A stretch of 44,339 nt of DNA from Candidatus Hodarchaeota archaeon (GCA_016839815.1 JAEOTM010000088.1:1-44339); one strand, 5' to 3'; shown: positions 14,850-22,009, numbered from the stretch's first letter. A program made the numbers and translations. The notes: generated by a model from the sequence alone, not told the origin.

Positions 14850-16232
14850 TCATTGCATGGATACTGAGACTCCAAAAGATTTTTTTCCCACAGGTTCTTT
14901 AGCTTTTAATAATATTAAGATTCCAATGAGGGCGAGACTGAAAAGAAAGAGTAAAGATTCTAACAATCCAGTTACTTCCATAATTTGTCCAAGGATGCTG
15001 AATCCAAGTGTATAAATGATCAGAGTAATCGTATTCTGATAGGACTCCTGGGAACTTCGATATTTTGAAGTAGTTATATCGTAGTATAATTGCCAATAAA
15101 GACTGGAAGTCAAACCACTGACAATTAATCGAATTAAAAATAAAGAAATGATTATTATGATCTTCCAAGAGGAATTGATCTTTAAAAGCAGGATGAATAA
15201 AAAAGAAATCCAAGCAAATGGGAAATTTAGTGTGTAAAACACAACTAATCCCTTACGGGGGGATTTAATAAAAGACGTAAACCGTCCTGAAAACTTACTC
15301 GATACTCCATAGGCAAAATCTGTAATGGAATTGACTAGAGATAGAATCAAAATTGCAGCGGATGTAAAATCTATTCTAAAGTAGCTTCCATTTAGAACAG
15401 TTTCTGATGACATCAAATAATACACCAGCAATGGAAAAATAACTGTGGAGAACGATAATGAAGTAAAATTTAGAAGTCCAAAGCTAAGGAAAAAAGGGGA
15501 AATCTCAAAATATTTTCGATGTAAACTCTCACTAAGATTCCGAAGTGAGAAAGAACTAATAGTTTTTGTATTTGTTATTATAGATCTATCTTGTTGATAT
15601 CTCTGGGGATTAGAATTCACCATTATTGCGAATCCGAATATAAGTCCCAATGCTGCAATAATACCTTGAAAGAAAAATATCAACTGGGGAGGAAGATGAG
15701 CTTGGAATAATAAAAATCCCCCAATAATTGTAACAGAGGAAACAGAGATCATTTTAACAAAACGAACATTTCCCATCGTATTTCGGAAGAGATTATCATT
15801 TTTTTCGGTTTTTTCTACAAGAAAACCCCATGAATTTAGAAACCAAGCCATATATGAGCCTGAAAGAAGAGCAGAAAAAATACCAACTAAAATTTCGAGA
15901 CATAGAAGTTGTAATGAGTTTGTGGCGAAAATTAAACCTAAATAGTATATCGTTAAGCATCCTAAAGCACTACAAAATGCTCCTCTCTGACCAAACCTAT
16001 CAGTTAGAACTCCCAGAGGTAAGTCAAGGACAATACTGAATACTGTCCCAATAGCAACAATGCTTCCAAAAATCGCATATGACCCAAGAATTGAAATATA
16101 ATACAAAGAAATCCATGTATGACTAAGATAGATAACCGTAATAATGAGTTCGAGACAAAAAAACTTCAATATTAGGTTTTTCAACTCTTCAGGATAATTA
16201 TTAACTCCAAGTAGTGTGTCAACATACAACAC
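14850..16232 (-). CDS. MFS transporter
   Basis: About 12 TM; motif A GVLTDRFGQR; GTG start with GGTGA RBS. Confidence 0.85.
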   Translation of the reverse strand: MLYVDTLLGVNNYPEELKNLILKFFCLELIITVIYLSHTWISLYYISILGSYAIFGSIVAIGTVFSIVLDLPLGVLTDRFGQRGAFCSALGCLTIYYLGLIFATNSLQLLCLEILVGIFSALLSGSYMAWFLNSWGFLVEKTEKNDNLFRNTMGNVRFVKMISVSSVTIIGGFLLFQAHLPPQLIFFFQGIIAALGLIFGFAIMVNSNPQRYQQDRSIITNTKTISSFSLRNLSESLHRKYFEISPFFLSFGLLNFTSLSFSTVIFPLLVYYLMSSETVLNGSYFRIDFTSAAILILSLVNSITDFAYGVSSKFSGRFTSFIKSPRKGLVVFYTLNFPFAWISFLFILLLKINSSWKIIIIISLFLIRLIVSGLTSSLYWQLYYDITTSKYRSSQESYQNTITLIIYTLGFSILGQIMEVTGLLESLLFLFSLALIGILILLKAKEPVGKKSFGVSVSMQ

Positions 16233-16265
16233 GCACTAACTCACCTTTGAAGTCCATTATTCTCT

Positions 16266-17654
16266 TTAATATGCATGTGTAAGTTGCTGTGCAATCCCAG
16301 AAACCAAACTAAAGTTAATAATTGGATAAGATTGGGAATTAACCTCTCCACCTGATATGATGACGAGATATGGTATATTCCCCAATATCTTAGAATAATG
16401 AGCAAGATACTGCTGAAATCTGTCTCCCACAATCATCGCCCGATTACCACAATCAAAAAATAAACCAAATTTTGTATTAGTATCAATTAATGATGATAAG
16501 CTCTTATCTAGTAAGTTTTCAATGGTTACAGCACTCTGATTGCAAATGTATGATGAAACCTGGTCTTTTTGATTTGTAAAAAGCTTTTTAGCAACTTGAT
16601 TCGGCGCGGTAATTAAGGCGTGATTAAGATTCGGGTTTATTGAAAGACCATAAAGATTTTGACTCTTTTTATCATCTAATATACATAATGGCCTAAAGGG
16701 GTGATAATAAAAATACTTTTGAGTACATTCTTCAAGGATTTCTGGAGTTTTATCCATTTCATACAACCTCAAAAGAGATTTCGCTCCCCACTGACCATTT
16801 ATTCTAGGAATGAAACCACCGTCTAAATAACTGTCAAGAGAAAAGGATTTTGTGTAATCTACTTTTGCTCCAGTGTCAGTTTTACTCATAAACCTCAATT
16901 CAGGAGAACTTAATGAAATAAATGCCATTGAATCTTTGTATGCTTTAAAATTATGAAATTGGTATGATTTCTTCATCGTAATTGGATCTACACCAAATGT
17001 TCCCGTATAATGAATACCTCGTTCATATAATTCTTGAAATAATGGCCATGCTGATGAATAGGAAATTCCTATTCCACTTAAATTCATGAGAAAATTAACT
17101 AATTTCCCAAAGATGCGTGAAATAGCAGGAATATCTCTCCATATTCGATTATTCAAAGCAAAAAATGGATTAAAACCTTGAAGCTTATGATTCAATAAAT
17201 TTACCATAAGCTTTGGAAATCCCAGTCCAGGGGGAAAGAAAATAAAGGTTGTAGAGGAATTCTGCTCTAATTCTTTAGTTTCGATATCTATACATTCTTT
17301 TAACACTCGTTTTGTTTTTGCTCTATTTCTTATTCGAAAACGTCTCACAAGACTTGTTCTAATGGAAATACCTGAAAAAAGCATAATTGCTGCTCCTTTC
17401 AGGCCATAATCAGTTTTGCTAGCTATCCCAATTCCTGAACATCCGGCTAATGGAGTATTTGGATACTTCTTTTTAATGATCTTTAAGGATTGGTTATAGA
17501 CTTTCTTACCACCAAAATGAGTCCCTGTAAAGAACAGTATCCCAGTTGGTTTCGAGTTTAAATCGATTTCAGCTTGTTTAAGAGCAGATTCGGTCGCAAT
17601 TTTTAAATCGTGATTGATACACAAGCCAACAGAAGCTTTCATTCTATGAATCAC
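16266..17654 (-). CDS. FIST-domain sensory protein (divergent, with a hydrophobic insert)
   Basis: N-terminal PTGILFF..YPNTPLAGCSGIG (FIST_N pattern); C-terminal GLFFDCGNR..GGEV (FIST_C pattern). Confidence 0.72.
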   Translation of the reverse strand: MIHRMKASVGLCINHDLKIATESALKQAEIDLNSKPTGILFFTGTHFGGKKVYNQSLKIIKKKYPNTPLAGCSGIGIASKTDYGLKGAAIMLFSGISIRTSLVRRFRIRNRAKTKRVLKECIDIETKELEQNSSTTFIFFPPGLGFPKLMVNLLNHKLQGFNPFFALNNRIWRDIPAISRIFGKLVNFLMNLSGIGISYSSAWPLFQELYERGIHYTGTFGVDPITMKKSYQFHNFKAYKDSMAFISLSSPELRFMSKTDTGAKVDYTKSFSLDSYLDGGFIPRINGQWGAKSLLRLYEMDKTPEILEECTQKYFYYHPFRPLCILDDKKSQNLYGLSINPNLNHALITAPNQVAKKLFTNQKDQVSSYICNQSAVTIENLLDKSLSSLIDTNTKFGLFFDCGNRAMIVGDRFQQYLAHYSKILGNIPYLVIISGGEVNSQSYPIINFSLVSGIAQQLTHAY

Positions 17655-18093
17655 CTAAAGATTGTTTTCTGTCCATTACCAACCCTATACGTTTGGCTGT
17701 TCTGCTCATCTCAATTTCCATAAGTCCTGTGTTCGCTTTTGCATGTAAAATAGTAACTAAGATCCCAGAATTCCCAGTACGATAGAAATACACTGGAAGT
17801 GATTCATTGTGTTCGATATTTTTGTTGTACTTAATAGATTTTGCACCATGCTTAAGTTCCTCCTTTGTTTTGGAGATTATATCCTTTACCCATTTGATAA
17901 CAATTAACAGGGAACTAGAGGTTTTTGTTTCATAAAAAGATGAAAGAACTCTACCATCTAAGCGAAATAGAATCGTAGCTTTGACATCTTGGAATGTAAA
18001 AAGATGCTTGGCCTCTGTTTGAATAGATGCAATAGCTTTGGTTAAAGTTGAAGCTTGGACATCTATCTCAAGTTGTGGAAATGTCATATACAA
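17644..18093 (-). CDS. Roadblock/LC7 (MglB/LAMTOR2-like) domain protein
   Basis: VKATILFRLDGRVLSS and GILVTILHAKANTGLMEIEMSRTAKRI match roadblock N- and C-terminal patterns. Confidence 0.78.
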   Translation of the reverse strand: MYMTFPQLEIDVQASTLTKAIASIQTEAKHLFTFQDVKATILFRLDGRVLSSFYETKTSSSLLIVIKWVKDIISKTKEELKHGAKSIKYNKNIEHNESLPVYFYRTGNSGILVTILHAKANTGLMEIEMSRTAKRIGLVMDRKQSLGDS

Positions 18094-18817
18094 TGAGTCC
18101 TTTTTCTTTTTGAAAACCGATTGGTTGAGGAGTTTCGGAATGAGATGACCCTCTAAATTTTCTGATGCTTAAGGTACGGTTATATATTCCCCCTAAACCA
18201 ATGTGTTCTAGTTCTATAATGGAATCGGATAGAAAAAGAGGGATTCTTGCTAATACATCCCCAAACCCTTTTTCTAGTGTCACTACAGCTGTTCCGATTT
18301 CCCTAAGAGAAGAAAAAATTCGATTAATAGCATTTCGTTGTTGGTTTGGATCTGAGATTTCCAGAAGTAACGGGGTTAAAGGATCAATGGCTATTCTTAT
18401 TCCTCCAGTGTACTTTGAGGCTGTTTCCTTGATTACTTCAAGATACTTCGGAAGTTCATTCATAAAAAATCTGAGACCAATTTCTCCTGACGTTAGTTCC
18501 GAATCAACATTAAATGCAACCTGAAATTGCAGGCTCCCTTCTCTATATTTCTTATTAAAATTATTCAATCCAATATCGCTACAATCTCGCATTACTGACT
18601 TGATATTTTGTTCTAAAGATACATAAAGCGCTGGAGAATGGAGGTCATCTGAAACATATTGCCAACAGAACGTGGATTTCCCACAACCAGGATCTGCGAT
18701 AATTACATTTACCGAATGTTCTCGAAATCCTCCATTCACAAGACGATCAAAACCAAGTACTCCGCTAGGGATTCTTGAAGATTGTACATTTGTCGTTTTT
18801 CTCAATAATTTCTGCAT
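18068..18817 (-). CDS. Single-domain KaiC/RAD55-like ATPase
   Basis: RIPSGVLGFDRLVNGG, Walker A ADPGCGKS, YVSLEQ, Walker B RIAID, RTLSIRKFRGS. Confidence 0.88.
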   Translation of the reverse strand: MQKLLRKTTNVQSSRIPSGVLGFDRLVNGGFREHSVNVIIADPGCGKSTFCWQYVSDDLHSPALYVSLEQNIKSVMRDCSDIGLNNFNKKYREGSLQFQVAFNVDSELTSGEIGLRFFMNELPKYLEVIKETASKYTGGIRIAIDPLTPLLLEISDPNQQRNAINRIFSSLREIGTAVVTLEKGFGDVLARIPLFLSDSIIELEHIGLGGIYNRTLSIRKFRGSSHSETPQPIGFQKEKGLIVYDISTT

Positions 18818-18827
18818 TTATAATTCC

Positions 18828-19430
18828 TCATGATACTAAAAGTTTGTTTGATAAATGAGTGTTTGAATCTGAAGATATATTACCTACTTTGTTGTTTTTT
18901 CTTTCGATTGATAATAAAACATACTCAAAAATATTCATAACGGTTGGTAAATCCTTAGCTGAGCATTTAAATGATTTAATACAATTATATCTCTGAACAT
19001 AACGATCTAAATTAAAATCTCTTTCATCATGAGTTGCTAGATCAGATTTTGTACCAATTAGAAATCTGGGGATAAGGGGGGGAATGAACTCGATCCATTC
19101 AGCAAGATTAAACAAGGATGAAAGATCAGTAAGATCAAAACAGAGTAAAGCTGCATCTGCACCTTTACAGAAATCACCAAAGACTCCCATATGCTTGAAA
19201 TGCTCCTGACCACCAAGATCCCATAGCTGGAGTTTACTTACTTCATTCTCTGAACGTGAAATAATCTTTGAATGGAACTCAACAGCGATAGTCTGTTTTG
19301 ATTTTGTAAAAAAATAGTTATCAATGTATGATTTAGATATTGTAGTTTTTCCTACACCTCCTTCTCCCAAAAGTACAATTTTCAGTGGTTTTTTTTCTTT
19401 CGAAGGAATTAACCGCAAATAATACACCAA
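18828..19430 (-). CDS. Ras-superfamily (Rab-like) small GTPase
   Basis: G1 GEGGVGKT, G2 TIAVEF, G3 WDLGGQ, G4 TKSD, G5 CSAK; no C-terminal prenylation cysteines. Confidence 0.92.
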   Translation of the reverse strand: MVYYLRLIPSKEKKPLKIVLLGEGGVGKTTISKSYIDNYFFTKSKQTIAVEFHSKIISRSENEVSKLQLWDLGGQEHFKHMGVFGDFCKGADAALLCFDLTDLSSLFNLAEWIEFIPPLIPRFLIGTKSDLATHDERDFNLDRYVQRYNCIKSFKCSAKDLPTVMNIFEYVLLSIERKNNKVGNISSDSNTHLSNKLLVS

Positions 19431-19523
19431 TTTTATTAAATGCGGTGTCCCATTTAAAGTCCCAAAAATAATCGAAATTTAGGTTCTTAAAAATCGGATC
19501 TTAAATAAGCTCATGATGGAATC

Positions 19524-19736
19524 ATGAAGTATCATAGTAAACTGAAGGAATTTCGATCAAGAATTAAAAGAATGGATAGAAAAAGAAGAGGCTCACCTCT
19601 TGTAGAAGAGGGAATATTGATAGGTTTGAGTTTATTCGGATTCCTATTGATATTTTCTATCGTCACAGGAATTTTAGATTGGCTTCTGATTAATGCAGAT
19701 CAATTACTCCGAGAACTAGGCTCTCTCTTTGCTTGA
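19524..19736 (+). CDS. Flp-sized type IV prepilin (class III signal peptide)
   Basis: Basic leader ending RKRRG, followed by SPLVE (Glu at +5) and a long hydrophobic helix; 47-aa mature peptide. Confidence 0.65.
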   Translation: MKYHSKLKEFRSRIKRMDRKRRGSPLVEEGILIGLSLFGFLLIFSIVTGILDWLLINADQLLRELGSLFA

Positions 19737-19996: not shown

Positions 19997-20563
19997 TCAA
20001 TTATCTTTAGACGGTGGATCTTTCCAAATTTTCATTGGATCTTGTTTCAATCTAAAGCGCTTTTGTTCTAAGAGTCTGTATACTGTTCCATGCTTCGAAC
20101 CTCGAATTAGCATCTCTATCGCTTCTTTTGCAGAACGTATTTCTTCAAGATCTCCAATTATCGAAATTTGTGAACCAAAAATTGAAATATAAGTATCGGT
20201 CCCTGATTCAATCATATTTCTTGCTTTCCCTTTTTCTCCTATCAACCGTGCTTTTAATCTCTTAATGTTATTTTTAGATCCTTCAAGCTGAATTGTTTCC
20301 AAATAAATGCTATCATCTATCAGATAGAATGCTTTGTCTGCGTTAAATCCCCTTCCTATTGCTTTTATGATGTCTCGTGCCTTCCAGACATAAGTAGGAT
20401 CAATTGTTTTATCAGAAGAGGTAATAATTATTGAACCATCTTCGCTGTCTACTTGGATATTTACTCCAGCAAGAGATTCGATTTCTGCCTTTGTTTCGCC
20501 TTTTCTACCTATCACTACCCCTATTCGACTTTTTGGAATTCTTACTCTACTAGAAATACTCAT
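19997..20563 (-). CDS. KH-domain rRNA processing protein Dim2/Pno1
   Basis: RIGVVIGRKGETK, KAIGRGF, RLIGEKG, GSKHGTVY; follows rio1. Confidence 0.9.
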   Translation of the reverse strand: MSISSRVRIPKSRIGVVIGRKGETKAEIESLAGVNIQVDSEDGSIIITSSDKTIDPTYVWKARDIIKAIGRGFNADKAFYLIDDSIYLETIQLEGSKNNIKRLKARLIGEKGKARNMIESGTDTYISIFGSQISIIGDLEEIRSAKEAIEMLIRGSKHGTVYRLLEQKRFRLKQDPMKIWKDPPSKDN

Positions 20564-21399
20564 AATATTATCTCCTTAACAGAATCTGGTGAATTATTAA
20601 CAATATTTTCAAAAATTATTTCTGTTTCTGGTGTGTCAACTCCCCGTTTAGAAAAATAAAACAATATATTATTTAAATCCCTTTCTAGAAATTCTTCTGC
20701 TCTTGGATGAGAAGATATAACACTCTGGCTCATATCTATTAAAAATGGAATGGATTCTTTTACTACAATATTATAGGGGGATAAATCTGCATGGATAAGA
20801 TCTGCTTTTTGGTATAATCTTCTAATCTGATCTAAAATTGTAATCATCATTATCTCGGTAGCTTCATCTGGAGTTATTCTTAACAAAGGACTTGGTATTC
20901 CATTAGTTCCAATCAACTCCATTAATAAAACGTTATTTTTAACTAAAATTGGTTTCGGGACATTAACACCAGCAAGAGTACTTCTACTTAGATTTCTATA
21001 CTCTTTCTCGACCCACAATTTAATTACATTCCTAGTCTTCTTACTATACTTTTTAAAACGAATATCGCCCGAAATATACTTCTCAATACTTCTAAAGTTT
21101 AATGTGCTTGTCCTAAAGACCTTGATGACAATTGGTGACTCTATAGAAAGATCTTCGCAAATCAGTTTTCCTTTAGGGCCAAGAGTTGCAAGAAAAACTC
21201 CAGATTCCTTCCCAGATGCTATTGTTCCAGTAATAGAATCAATTATTCCCTTACTTTGTAGATTTGATAATATTTTTGTGGTATTTGCATCAATAACTGC
21301 ATTAATTGTCTGGTAGTCTTCCTTTCCCTTCTTTTTTTTACGCCAACGATCATTAGAGTCAGTTAATTTTTCCCAGATCTTCTTATCATCGGGTTTCAT
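20560..21399 (-). CDS. rio1: RIO1 atypical protein kinase
   Basis: IASGKES, WVEKEYRNL, LIHADLSPYNI, IDMSQSV. Confidence 0.92.
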   Translation of the reverse strand: MKPDDKKIWEKLTDSNDRWRKKKKGKEDYQTINAVIDANTTKILSNLQSKGIIDSITGTIASGKESGVFLATLGPKGKLICEDLSIESPIVIKVFRTSTLNFRSIEKYISGDIRFKKYSKKTRNVIKLWVEKEYRNLSRSTLAGVNVPKPILVKNNVLLMELIGTNGIPSPLLRITPDEATEIMMITILDQIRRLYQKADLIHADLSPYNIVVKESIPFLIDMSQSVISSHPRAEEFLERDLNNILFYFSKRGVDTPETEIIFENIVNNSPDSVKEIIL

Positions 21400-22009
21400 C
21401 GCTCGGAGACCTCTTAAATGAGGTAACTAATTTCCCAAATGATTTTGCAGTTATACGGTCCTGAATAAGACCACAATTTGGACATTTTAGTGTATTCCGT
21501 CTAAAAAAATCTAAATCAGTTCCGCAATGATTACACTGAGCAATTACAACTCCCAGTCCATCACCTATAAGACTGATATATACAGGTTTCATTGTTCTTA
21601 CAATTTTAAATTTAAGCCAATCACCCGGACGTGTTACCTCATACATGTTTTTTACAAATCTTCTTGAGGCTTCAGATACATGTAAGATACTATTCACTGG
21701 TAATGAAACTTGAGTGTCATTAACTCGATGAATATCGACAGATGCTATCTGTTTTTTAACATATACAACCCTTCCAATACCCGTATCACCTTTCTTAAGC
21801 TCAAATAATCGTTTAAATGGTTTTACTGTGATTTTATGCTTTTTTTGATCAGGTATCACTTCACCTGTTGTCATAGATAATATGCTTCCGTCTTGTTCAA
21901 AGCACGTTTCATCAGGTAAAAATTCCTCTATTACTGCAATTTTGTCACCTGGTACAACCCGACTTTGAGTTGTATTTTCTACATGTTTTTTACTCATTTC
22001 CAATCCCAA
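21386..22009 (-). CDS. csl4: Exosome RNA-binding subunit Csl4
   Basis: VVPGDKIAVIEEF, S1 domain (LHVSE..RPGD), LGVVIAQCNHCG..CPNCG zinc ribbon. Confidence 0.88.
   Translation of the reverse strand: MGLEMSKKHVENTTQSRVVPGDKIAVIEEFLPDETCFEQDGSILSMTTGEVIPDQKKHKITVKPFKRLFELKKGDTGIGRVVYVKKQIASVDIHRVNDTQVSLPVNSILHVSEASRRFVKNMYEVTRPGDWLKFKIVRTMKPVYISLIGDGLGVVIAQCNHCGTDLDFFRRNTLKCPNCGLIQDRITAKSFGKLVTSFKRSPSDETR

Follow-up and report, generated by a model that had tools for sequence, protein, structure and literature searches.

A candidate signalling cassette of Asgard archaea joining small GTPase, KaiC-like ATPase, roadblock, FIST and transporter genes

The window analyzed in this study, a stretch of 44,339 nucleotides (nt) from Candidatus Hodarchaeota archaeon (GCA_016839815.1 JAEOTM010000088.1:1-44339), contains five adjacent and co-oriented genes between positions 14850 and 19430. 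They code for a small GTPase (P0001), a KaiC-like ATPase (P0002), a roadblock protein (P0003), a FIST domain protein (P0004) and a transporter of the major facilitator superfamily (MFS; P0005). This locus raises the question whether its genes form a functional unit and, if so, what such a unit would sense and control. The answer favored here, with moderate confidence, is a co-transcribed cytoplasmic signalling cassette, which is built on an older archaeal triad and to which Heimdallarchaeia added a Ras/Rab-like GTPase and one genus of Hodarchaeales an MFS transporter. The triad would comprise a sensor-type protein with FIST domains, a roadblock adaptor of divergent sequence and a KaiC-like ATPase of one domain whose catalytic residues are intact.

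The same gene set was found to recur in 43 species-level loci, which show two architectures with unrelated flanks, and the arrangement is therefore more than chance. In the Hodarchaeales genus, the order GTPase, KaiC, roadblock, FIST, MFS is kept in about 20 of 21 species. The flanking genes encoding a RIO kinase, a KH protein, a Flp-like open reading frame (ORF) of 70 amino acids (aa) and SecY are also conserved throughout this genus, so that synteny at this level does not discriminate alone and the evidence from outside the genus is decisive. The second architecture was identified in 28 of 31 Heimdallarchaeaceae-type genomes (Heimdallarchaeum aukensis, H. endolithica, AB_125 and their relatives). 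It consists of KaiC (about 310 aa), roadblock (119 aa), FIST and GTPase, the latter on the 3′ side, and is accompanied by a gene for a small CxxC protein, here called X; the genes have 4-nt overlaps and the flanks are entirely different. The gene set singled out in a preliminary description, which was made from the sequence alone, is thus conserved in relatives, as a whole in the genus and as a four-gene core in the Heimdallarchaeaceae type. In every locus, either KaiC or FIST separates the roadblock gene from the GTPase gene.

Further loci show which part of the cassette is constant. In another Asgard class (genome G397), KaiC, roadblock and FIST are followed by an MFS gene and there is no GTPase gene in the locus. 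The contigs L090 and L092 carry the triad followed by unrelated genes, and contig L091 has the order GTPase, KaiC, roadblock, FIST. Profile searches with FIST and roadblock retrieved only Hodarchaeales and relatives of Heimdallarchaeum; an exhaustive profile search of representatives reached further, to Altiarchaeota contigs with KaiC, a roadblock-like gene and FIST, where the roadblock relationship has an hhalign probability of 95%. Lower-scoring FIST relatives (P0075, P0078, P0083) stand alone without KaiC or roadblock. The contigs of P0068 and P0084 are too short to judge. The order KaiC-roadblock-FIST is therefore the invariant core, and the GTPase, X and the transporters are lineage-specific additions. 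Since loci of another Asgard class and of Altiarchaeota have the triad but no GTPase gene, the roadblock protein is not simply a GTPase regulator.

All five domain assignments of the preliminary description were confirmed, four by Pfam and the roadblock protein by profile and fold. For P0003, no Pfam-A match (including Robl_LC7, PF03259) and no NCBIfam match was obtained at E ≤ 10 with a Pfam set that lacks PF27410. A profile of 17 orthologues matches a Thorarchaeota roadblock protein (PDB 7f8m) over its full length (4.3e-6). The AlphaFold2 model, with a predicted local distance difference test score (pLDDT) of 86.6, has the topology alpha-beta-beta-alpha-beta-beta-beta-alpha, and its top Foldseek matches are the Asgard roadblock 9jue, MglB and 7f8m (E 5e-8 to 1e-6), with LAMTOR and Rag C-terminal domains among the lower ones. 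Profile and model place P0003 in the roadblock/LC7 superfamily, as a divergent branch. Its relatives are annotated as PF27410 ‘AF0774’ in the precomputed Pfam data, a name for which no relevant paper was found in the literature. In Hodarchaeales, the protein is extended at its N-terminus by an acquired helix of about 25 aa.

A partner of the roadblock protein was predicted with a complex of three chains, KaiC, FIST and roadblock, in which the roadblock protein was the scored partner. The interface score ipSAE was 0.73 (0.82, 0.72, and 0.73 in the runs), with 0.12 for the best control; 58 of 80 solved complexes and 2 of 110 mismatched pairs attained this mark in the calibration. Between runs, 86% or more of the contacts recur, and the partner pLDDT is at least 78. 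When FIST is swapped out the score collapses, and the confident interface is therefore the one between roadblock and FIST. It is predicted to comprise, in the roadblock protein, the C-terminal helix including the invariant residues Asn119, Glu126, and Arg129 and, in FIST, the surroundings of the invariant CxNR...GD motif of FIST_C. The roadblock surface is enriched in conserved positions (p about 0.01-0.04). We know of no solved FIST-roadblock complex, and it is thus unlikely that the high score stems from model memory. The KaiC contacts are not named in the output, which accordingly says nothing on KaiC binding.

Among the pairings considered in the preliminary description, that of roadblock and FIST thus gained support from the model, whereas the role given there to the roadblock protein, regulation of the GTPase, is weakened by the loci without a GTPase and by the predicted placement on FIST. 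The prediction supports, rather than shows, a docking of the roadblock protein on the FIST protein. The wider idea that KaiC, roadblock and FIST form an ancient archaeal sensor unit, in which FIST is docked directly on the roadblock adaptor, is tentative and in our view rather doubtful.

The KaiC-like ATPase P0002 matches PF06745 over residues 16-245 (1.6e-29). In 11 orthologues of all types, the Walker A motif GxGKS/T (G44/G46/K47/T49), Glu69, the Walker B residue Asp145 as well as Arg214, Lys220, and Arg222 are invariant. The enzyme is probably active, as Walker A, the catalytic Glu, Walker B and the basic residues are kept in all types. The non-Hodarchaeales forms carry a C-terminal helical extension of about 70 aa, which the Hodarchaeales form does not have.

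The FIST protein P0004 matches FIST_N (PF08495) with 7.1e-10 and 39.5 bits (cut-off 23.2). The match to FIST_C (PF10442; 7.2e-5) reaches 23.4 bits and lies below the cut-off of 28.5, and the G397 orthologue reaches 39.4 bits. By its sequence, with both FIST_N and FIST_C, P0004 is a member of the FIST domain proteins. Its AlphaFold2 model (pLDDT 78) is most similar to FBXO22 (8ua3/8s7e) among solved folds, followed by Toblerone-fold cyclic amide hydrolases and chorismatase, and the model would still be compatible with an enzymatic role. A comparison of the FIST profile with PDB sequences gave nothing meaningful. Transmembrane segments were not found in FIST; among the five proteins only the MFS transporter has them.

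The GTPase P0001 matches Ras (PF00071; 2.7e-28, 99 bits), Roc (6.4e-21) and TIGR00231. Its motifs G1 (GEGGVGKT), G2 (Thr47), G3 (DLGGQ), G4 (TKSD), and G5 (SAK) are kept in both cassette types. The catalytic Gln in G3 (canonical DxxGQ) is conserved, and the residue before the G2 Thr is Gln or Met. By motif inspection, neither an MglA-type Arg finger nor a lipidation motif was found. The match to Gtr1_RagA reaches 21.3 bits (cut-off 22) and covers only residues 17-79, and the 200-aa protein consists of the G domain alone, without a C-terminal roadblock domain. According to these features the GTPase is Ras/Rab-like and not Rag-type. In a tree with 36 paralogues, the cassette GTPases of both architectures group together with ultrafast bootstrap and approximate likelihood ratio test (UFboot/aLRT) values of 93/94. 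A single recruitment across both architectures is therefore likely; it is not proven, because both clades sit on long stems.

Other small GTPases were noted. About 56 small GTPase hits were counted in this genome. On contig C11 of genome G000 (50464-51568, minus strand), two strongly divergent small GTPase genes stand in tandem; they have long branches and group with the clade of the cassette GTPases. Many species of the genus possess a second, unlinked paralogue, which is 55-60% identical to the cassette GTPase (G009:C1:1041044-1041610; equivalents in L080-L082). No such paralogue was found in the genome of the window, which is 89.5% complete.

The arrangement of the genes points to a single transcript. 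Order and spacing of the five genes in the ORF listing (Table 1) agree exactly with those of the preliminary description, with a 10-nt gap, overlaps of 26 and 11 nt and a 33-nt gap for the longest ORFs, where the overlap sizes vary with the choice of the start codon. With ATG 18087 as the likely roadblock start (147 aa) the KaiC/roadblock overlap is 20 nt, and with ATG 17642 as the likely FIST start roadblock and FIST are 1 nt apart. ATG 17642 is favored, because AGGTGA is found 8 nt upstream and the N-termini of relatives agree. The real start of the GTPase gene may be TTG 19418. Shine-Dalgarno-like motifs are located 8 nt before the KaiC ATG (GAGGA) and 8 nt before the GTG start of MFS (AGGTGA) as well as at the FIST start just mentioned, and none was found before the start of the GTPase gene, the first of the operon. 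Over all loci the gaps are tight, with medians of 10 nt for GTPase/KaiC, -4 nt for KaiC/roadblock, 3 nt for roadblock/FIST and 15 nt for FIST/MFS.

Just upstream of the GTPase start, CTTTAAAT and TTTAATAAAA were read from the sequence as TATA-like AT-rich boxes. No terminator-like site was found within any of the junctions of the operon. A sigma-70 promoter scan gave 26 sites vs. 21.9 expected, the sigma-70 model being uninformative for an archaeal host. The layout would be that commonly seen in archaeal operons whose first gene has a short leader or none. Co-transcription of the five genes, which had been proposed before, is likely in view of the Shine-Dalgarno-like motifs and the junctions devoid of terminator-like sites.

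Table 1. Positions of the five genes and of the candidate promoter region in the window.
Feature	Coordinates	Strand	Match or motif
Ras/Rab-like small GTPase, P0001, 200 aa	18828..19430	-	PF00071
Single-domain KaiC/RecA-like ATPase, P0002, 249 aa	18068..18817	-	PF06745
Divergent roadblock/LC7-fold protein, P0003, 149 aa	17644..18093	-	profile + fold
FIST_N + FIST_C protein, P0004, 462 aa	16266..17654	-	PF08495, PF10442
MFS transporter, P0005, 460 aa, genus-specific fifth gene	14850..16232	-	MFS_1
Candidate operon promoter, 93-nt divergent intergenic region	19431..19523	.	TATA-like AT-rich boxes

The last gene of the operon differs from the others in its distribution. P0005 matches MFS_1 with 30.6 bits (cut-off 33.4), all of 10 orthologues match (best 4.2e-14), the motif A GVLTDRFGQR with an invariant GxLxDRxGxR is present and about 12 hydrophobic segments were counted. 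Its sequence thus identifies P0005 as a member of the major facilitator superfamily. The MFS gene adjoins FIST in 15 of 15 Hodarchaeales-type loci with both genes (gap -32 to 49 nt, median 15 nt), is limited to the Hodarchaeales genus and is absent from the Heimdallarchaeaceae type and from the GTPase-first locus L091. Non-orthologous transporters are found beside the triad in G397, L099, and L100, so that, including the present one, different transporter families occur in four lineages: in G397 the triad is followed by a non-orthologous MFS gene, and one Altiarchaeota triad is preceded by a Na+/H+ exchanger gene. The idea of the preliminary description that a transporter feeds the GTPase switch gains from this recurrence and loses from the restriction of the MFS gene to one genus and its absence from L091. 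It is a plausible lead, not a finding.

From the genes, folds, motifs, conservation and arrangements described above, we infer the following scheme for binding, ligand and output. A small ligand would be bound by FIST, as the family suggests. The roadblock protein is predicted to hold FIST with its conserved C-terminal helix via the conserved CxNR...GD face of FIST_C. KaiC-like ATPases have been proposed to signal via a small second component (PMC4858521). The ATPase of the cassette may supply a state that depends on ATP or autophosphorylation, and the roadblock protein would be its ‘second component’, in the role which KaiB has for KaiC. Like MglB or CvnB, the roadblock platform could then determine whether the cassette GTPase is in its GTP or GDP state. 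In the genus, the likeliest local target or ligand source would be the MFS transporter, as the operon structure and the recurrent transporter neighbors suggest. Two leads for the output thus arise, transport and a Tad-like type IV filament, of which transport is ranked first for this operon because the MFS gene lies inside it.

The filament is the more serious of the alternatives, although we consider it unlikely. Here the GTPase or the roadblock-FIST-KaiC core would act, via X, on a secretion ATPase, and the module would control a Tad-like type IV filament instead of transport. X (about 105 aa, CxxC) is the fifth co-oriented gene in 24 of 24 Heimdallarchaeaceae-type loci, and its sole Hodarchaeales homologue is a 124-aa CxxC protein (30714-31088, minus strand; hhalign probability 94.8%, E 4.9e-8), each of the two being the only cross-family match of the other, but the homology comprises 59 aligned columns. 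The homologue is co-oriented with and 33 nt upstream of a T2SSE secretion ATPase gene (29346-30680, minus strand; PF00437, 5.2e-16). The homologue is single-copy and the first gene of an operon with this ATPase gene, an arrangement which is kept genus-wide at about 11-14 kb from the cassette (about 11 kb here), whereas in Heimdallarchaeaceae-type genomes the matching ATPase is 15-55 kb away and the triad-only loci examined have neither X nor a nearby pilus gene. The 70-aa Flp/class III prepilin-like ORF (19524-19736, plus strand), head-to-head with the GTPase gene, has a basic leader, the sequence RRG|SPLVEEG and one hydrophobic helix. However, it is conserved only within the genus, where the whole neighborhood is syntenic; it is nearly identical in at least 11 species and was not seen at Heimdallarchaeaceae-type loci. 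In addition, KaiC-family ATPases and roadblock/LC7 proteins recur in archaeal type IV pilus loci (PMC4858521), and precedents exist in MglA/MglB, which steer type IV pili, and in the KaiC-like ArlH, which acts on the archaellum ATPase.

Three further explanations are less probable. It is improbable that the operon is the prokaryotic counterpart or forerunner of transporter-Ragulator-Rag amino-acid sensing, in which MFS and FIST would feed the nutrient status to a roadblock-scaffolded GTPase. The structural matches of the roadblock fold include LAMTOR and Rag C-terminal domains, the MFS gene is probably co-transcribed in the genus, non-orthologous transporters lie at the triad in other lineages, and the host lineage is Hodarchaeales. 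Yet the GTPase lacks the C-terminal domain of Rag proteins and stays below the Gtr1_RagA cut-off. There is one roadblock gene instead of a LAMTOR-like set, with MglB and Asgard roadblocks as the best fold matches. Moreover, MFS is missing from the Heimdallarchaeaceae type and L091, and the triad is older than the link to the GTPase, reaching Altiarchaeota, with FIST as the predicted partner of the roadblock protein. The parallel to Rag/Ragulator drawn in the preliminary description is supported in a loose sense only; the GTPase is not of the Rag type and the MFS gene is confined to one genus.

A metabolic or enzymatic complex, with FIST as a hydrolase- or YjgF-like enzyme and KaiC as its ATP-dependent partner, has an equally small probability. 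The hydrolases and the chorismatase which follow FBXO22 among the fold matches would fit it, but their TM-scores are low (0.33-0.37). Some triad loci lie among metabolic genes (aldehyde dehydrogenase, thiolase, LarA), but these flanking genes vary by lineage, and the association with GTPase and roadblock is typical of switches. The FIST family is reportedly known from signalling contexts, and NosP is an example of the family in such a context. Still more improbable is that GTPase and MFS are mere neighbors of the triad, kept by general synteny without shared function. The whole neighborhood is syntenic within the genus and the triad stands alone elsewhere, but two architectures whose flanks differ both have a GTPase joined to the triad, and these GTPases group together. 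Rearrangement breakpoints lie right after MFS in at least four species and never between FIST and MFS, the internal starts are led by Shine-Dalgarno motifs, and the junctions show no promoter- or terminator-like break. Finally, a role in anti-phage defence was rejected, as none of the five proteins matches a PADLOC model at E ≤ 0.001.

Several observations weigh against the signalling cassette. The FIST side of the predicted interface is not significantly enriched in conserved positions (p about 0.2), the complex was predicted from three chains with own alignments, which departs from the calibration, and the alignments used to test interface conservation had also been input to the model, so that this test is not independent. 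Toblerone-fold hydrolases are similar to the FIST fold as well. The branch with 93/94 that unites the GTPases connects two long stems and is not starred. The triad-only lineages show that the roadblock protein needs no neighboring GTPase, and in G397 no GTPase of the cassette type is evident outside the locus. The link to MFS is weak, since the whole neighborhood (RIO kinase, KH protein, SecY) is conserved in the genus and the GTPase-first relative L091 has no MFS gene. Transporter neighbors occur in about 4 of 9 architectures, a small number which was counted post hoc and has no formal null.

Compared with known systems, the signalling cassette is neither an MglA/MglB system nor a conservon nor a Rag-Ragulator system. 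MglA is characterized by an intrinsic Arg finger before the G2 Thr, and its gene adjoins mglB. The MglA/MglB pair of Myxococcus and Thermus resembles the cassette in that P0003 has MglB chains among its best fold matches, whereas in the cassette GTPase the G3 motif is the canonical DxxGQ and no Arg precedes the G2 Thr, the roadblock gene never adjoins the GTPase gene and the predicted roadblock partner is FIST. A census from 2014 found that Ras-like (Rup) GTPases are never coupled to MglB (0/121) (PMC4316618). [quoted passage not shown] Their interactions depend on ATPase/kinase and GTPase states (PMC4316618; PMC13343842). However, the five proteins have no HATPase, HisKA or DUF742 match, and only the roadblock and GTPase parts correspond; the cassette has a KaiC/RecA-fold ATPase, a soluble FIST sensor, a Ras/Rab-like GTPase and an archaeal host. 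With Rag-Ragulator it shares the logic of roadblock platform and GTPase switch, including LAMTOR and Rag C-terminal domains as lower fold matches, but it lacks a Rag-type GTPase, a scaffold of several roadblock proteins and a lysosomal context. In Rag GTPases the G domain precedes a C-terminal roadblock domain, and they act as heterodimers on the LAMTOR scaffold.

The archaeal KaiC-like ‘signal transduction hubs’ (PMC4858521, PMC5847659) also contain a single-domain KaiC-like ATPase with intact motifs beside a small ‘second component’ and a sensor-type protein; here, unlike there, the second component would be a roadblock protein and not a KaiB- or DEATH-like one. FIST or small-GTPase partners of these hubs were not found mentioned in the literature searched, which did not cover Makarova, Galperin & Koonin (2017). 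An Asgard operon of LAMTOR1-like roadblock, Rab-like GTPase and DENN (Liu et al., bioRxiv 10.1101/2020.10.19.343400) is likewise a rare conserved small GTPase-roadblock operon; it differs by DENN in place of KaiC and FIST and by another roadblock family. The present cassette with its GTPase is restricted to part of Heimdallarchaeia. By analogy, the closest to the cassette in its working may be a conservon or a G-protein module of the MglAB type, here coupled to a KaiC hub. The preliminary description had held the combination to be undescribed, and in accordance with this no paper was found which combines FIST with KaiC, roadblock or Asgard GTPases, in a search outside of which lies the 2017 KaiC survey of Makarova et al. 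New here are the core formed by the triad, which extends beyond Asgard, the prediction that FIST pairs with roadblock, the repeated occurrence of non-orthologous transporters as neighbors and the link of the X family to a secretion ATPase.

Some neighboring genes of these loci are also worth recording. Upstream of the operon, a block of informational genes, which is syntenic genus-wide, encodes a KH/PNO1-like protein, a RIO1 kinase and a Csl4/Rrp4-like protein (19997-22009, minus strand). In L048 (3785-4555, minus strand) and equivalent Heimdallarchaeaceae-type loci, a 256-aa UFL1/DDRGK1-like protein is encoded divergently from the cassette and beside an OST3/OST6-like gene; it matches E3_UFM1_ligase (5e-9), DDRGK and PCI winged-helix models. 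In G397, a gene divergent from KaiC-roadblock-FIST-MFS (L075, 5353-5838, minus strand) codes for a 161-aa longin-like protein with weak matches to Fuz_longin_1 and Sybindin.

The signalling cassette bears on the question which proteins regulate the many GTPases of Asgard archaea. GTPase, roadblock and longin genes are numerous in these genomes and rarely linked, so that regulators could not be matched to Asgard GTPases from the genome layout (PMC10933270); in MK-D1, roadblock genes generally do not share operons with GTPase genes (Tran et al., PMC10933270). The cassette departs from this rule and is conserved in the two lineages of Heimdallarchaeia that are closest to eukaryotes. It offers concrete candidate partners for one Asgard GTPase, and its four soluble proteins lend themselves to joint expression and testing. 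The predicted pairing of FIST with roadblock would be of a new kind, and the cassette would connect the proposed archaeal KaiC hubs with G-protein switching. As FIST has the fold of the eukaryotic FBXO22, it is a second eukaryote-linked domain in the cassette. If the rather doubtful reading as an ancient sensor unit with FIST docked on the roadblock protein is true, the cassette would be the first operon-defined regulator set for an Asgard GTPase, and it would represent a prokaryotic form of signalling from a ligand sensor via a roadblock platform to a small GTPase, which would predate the logic of the Ragulator-Rag type.

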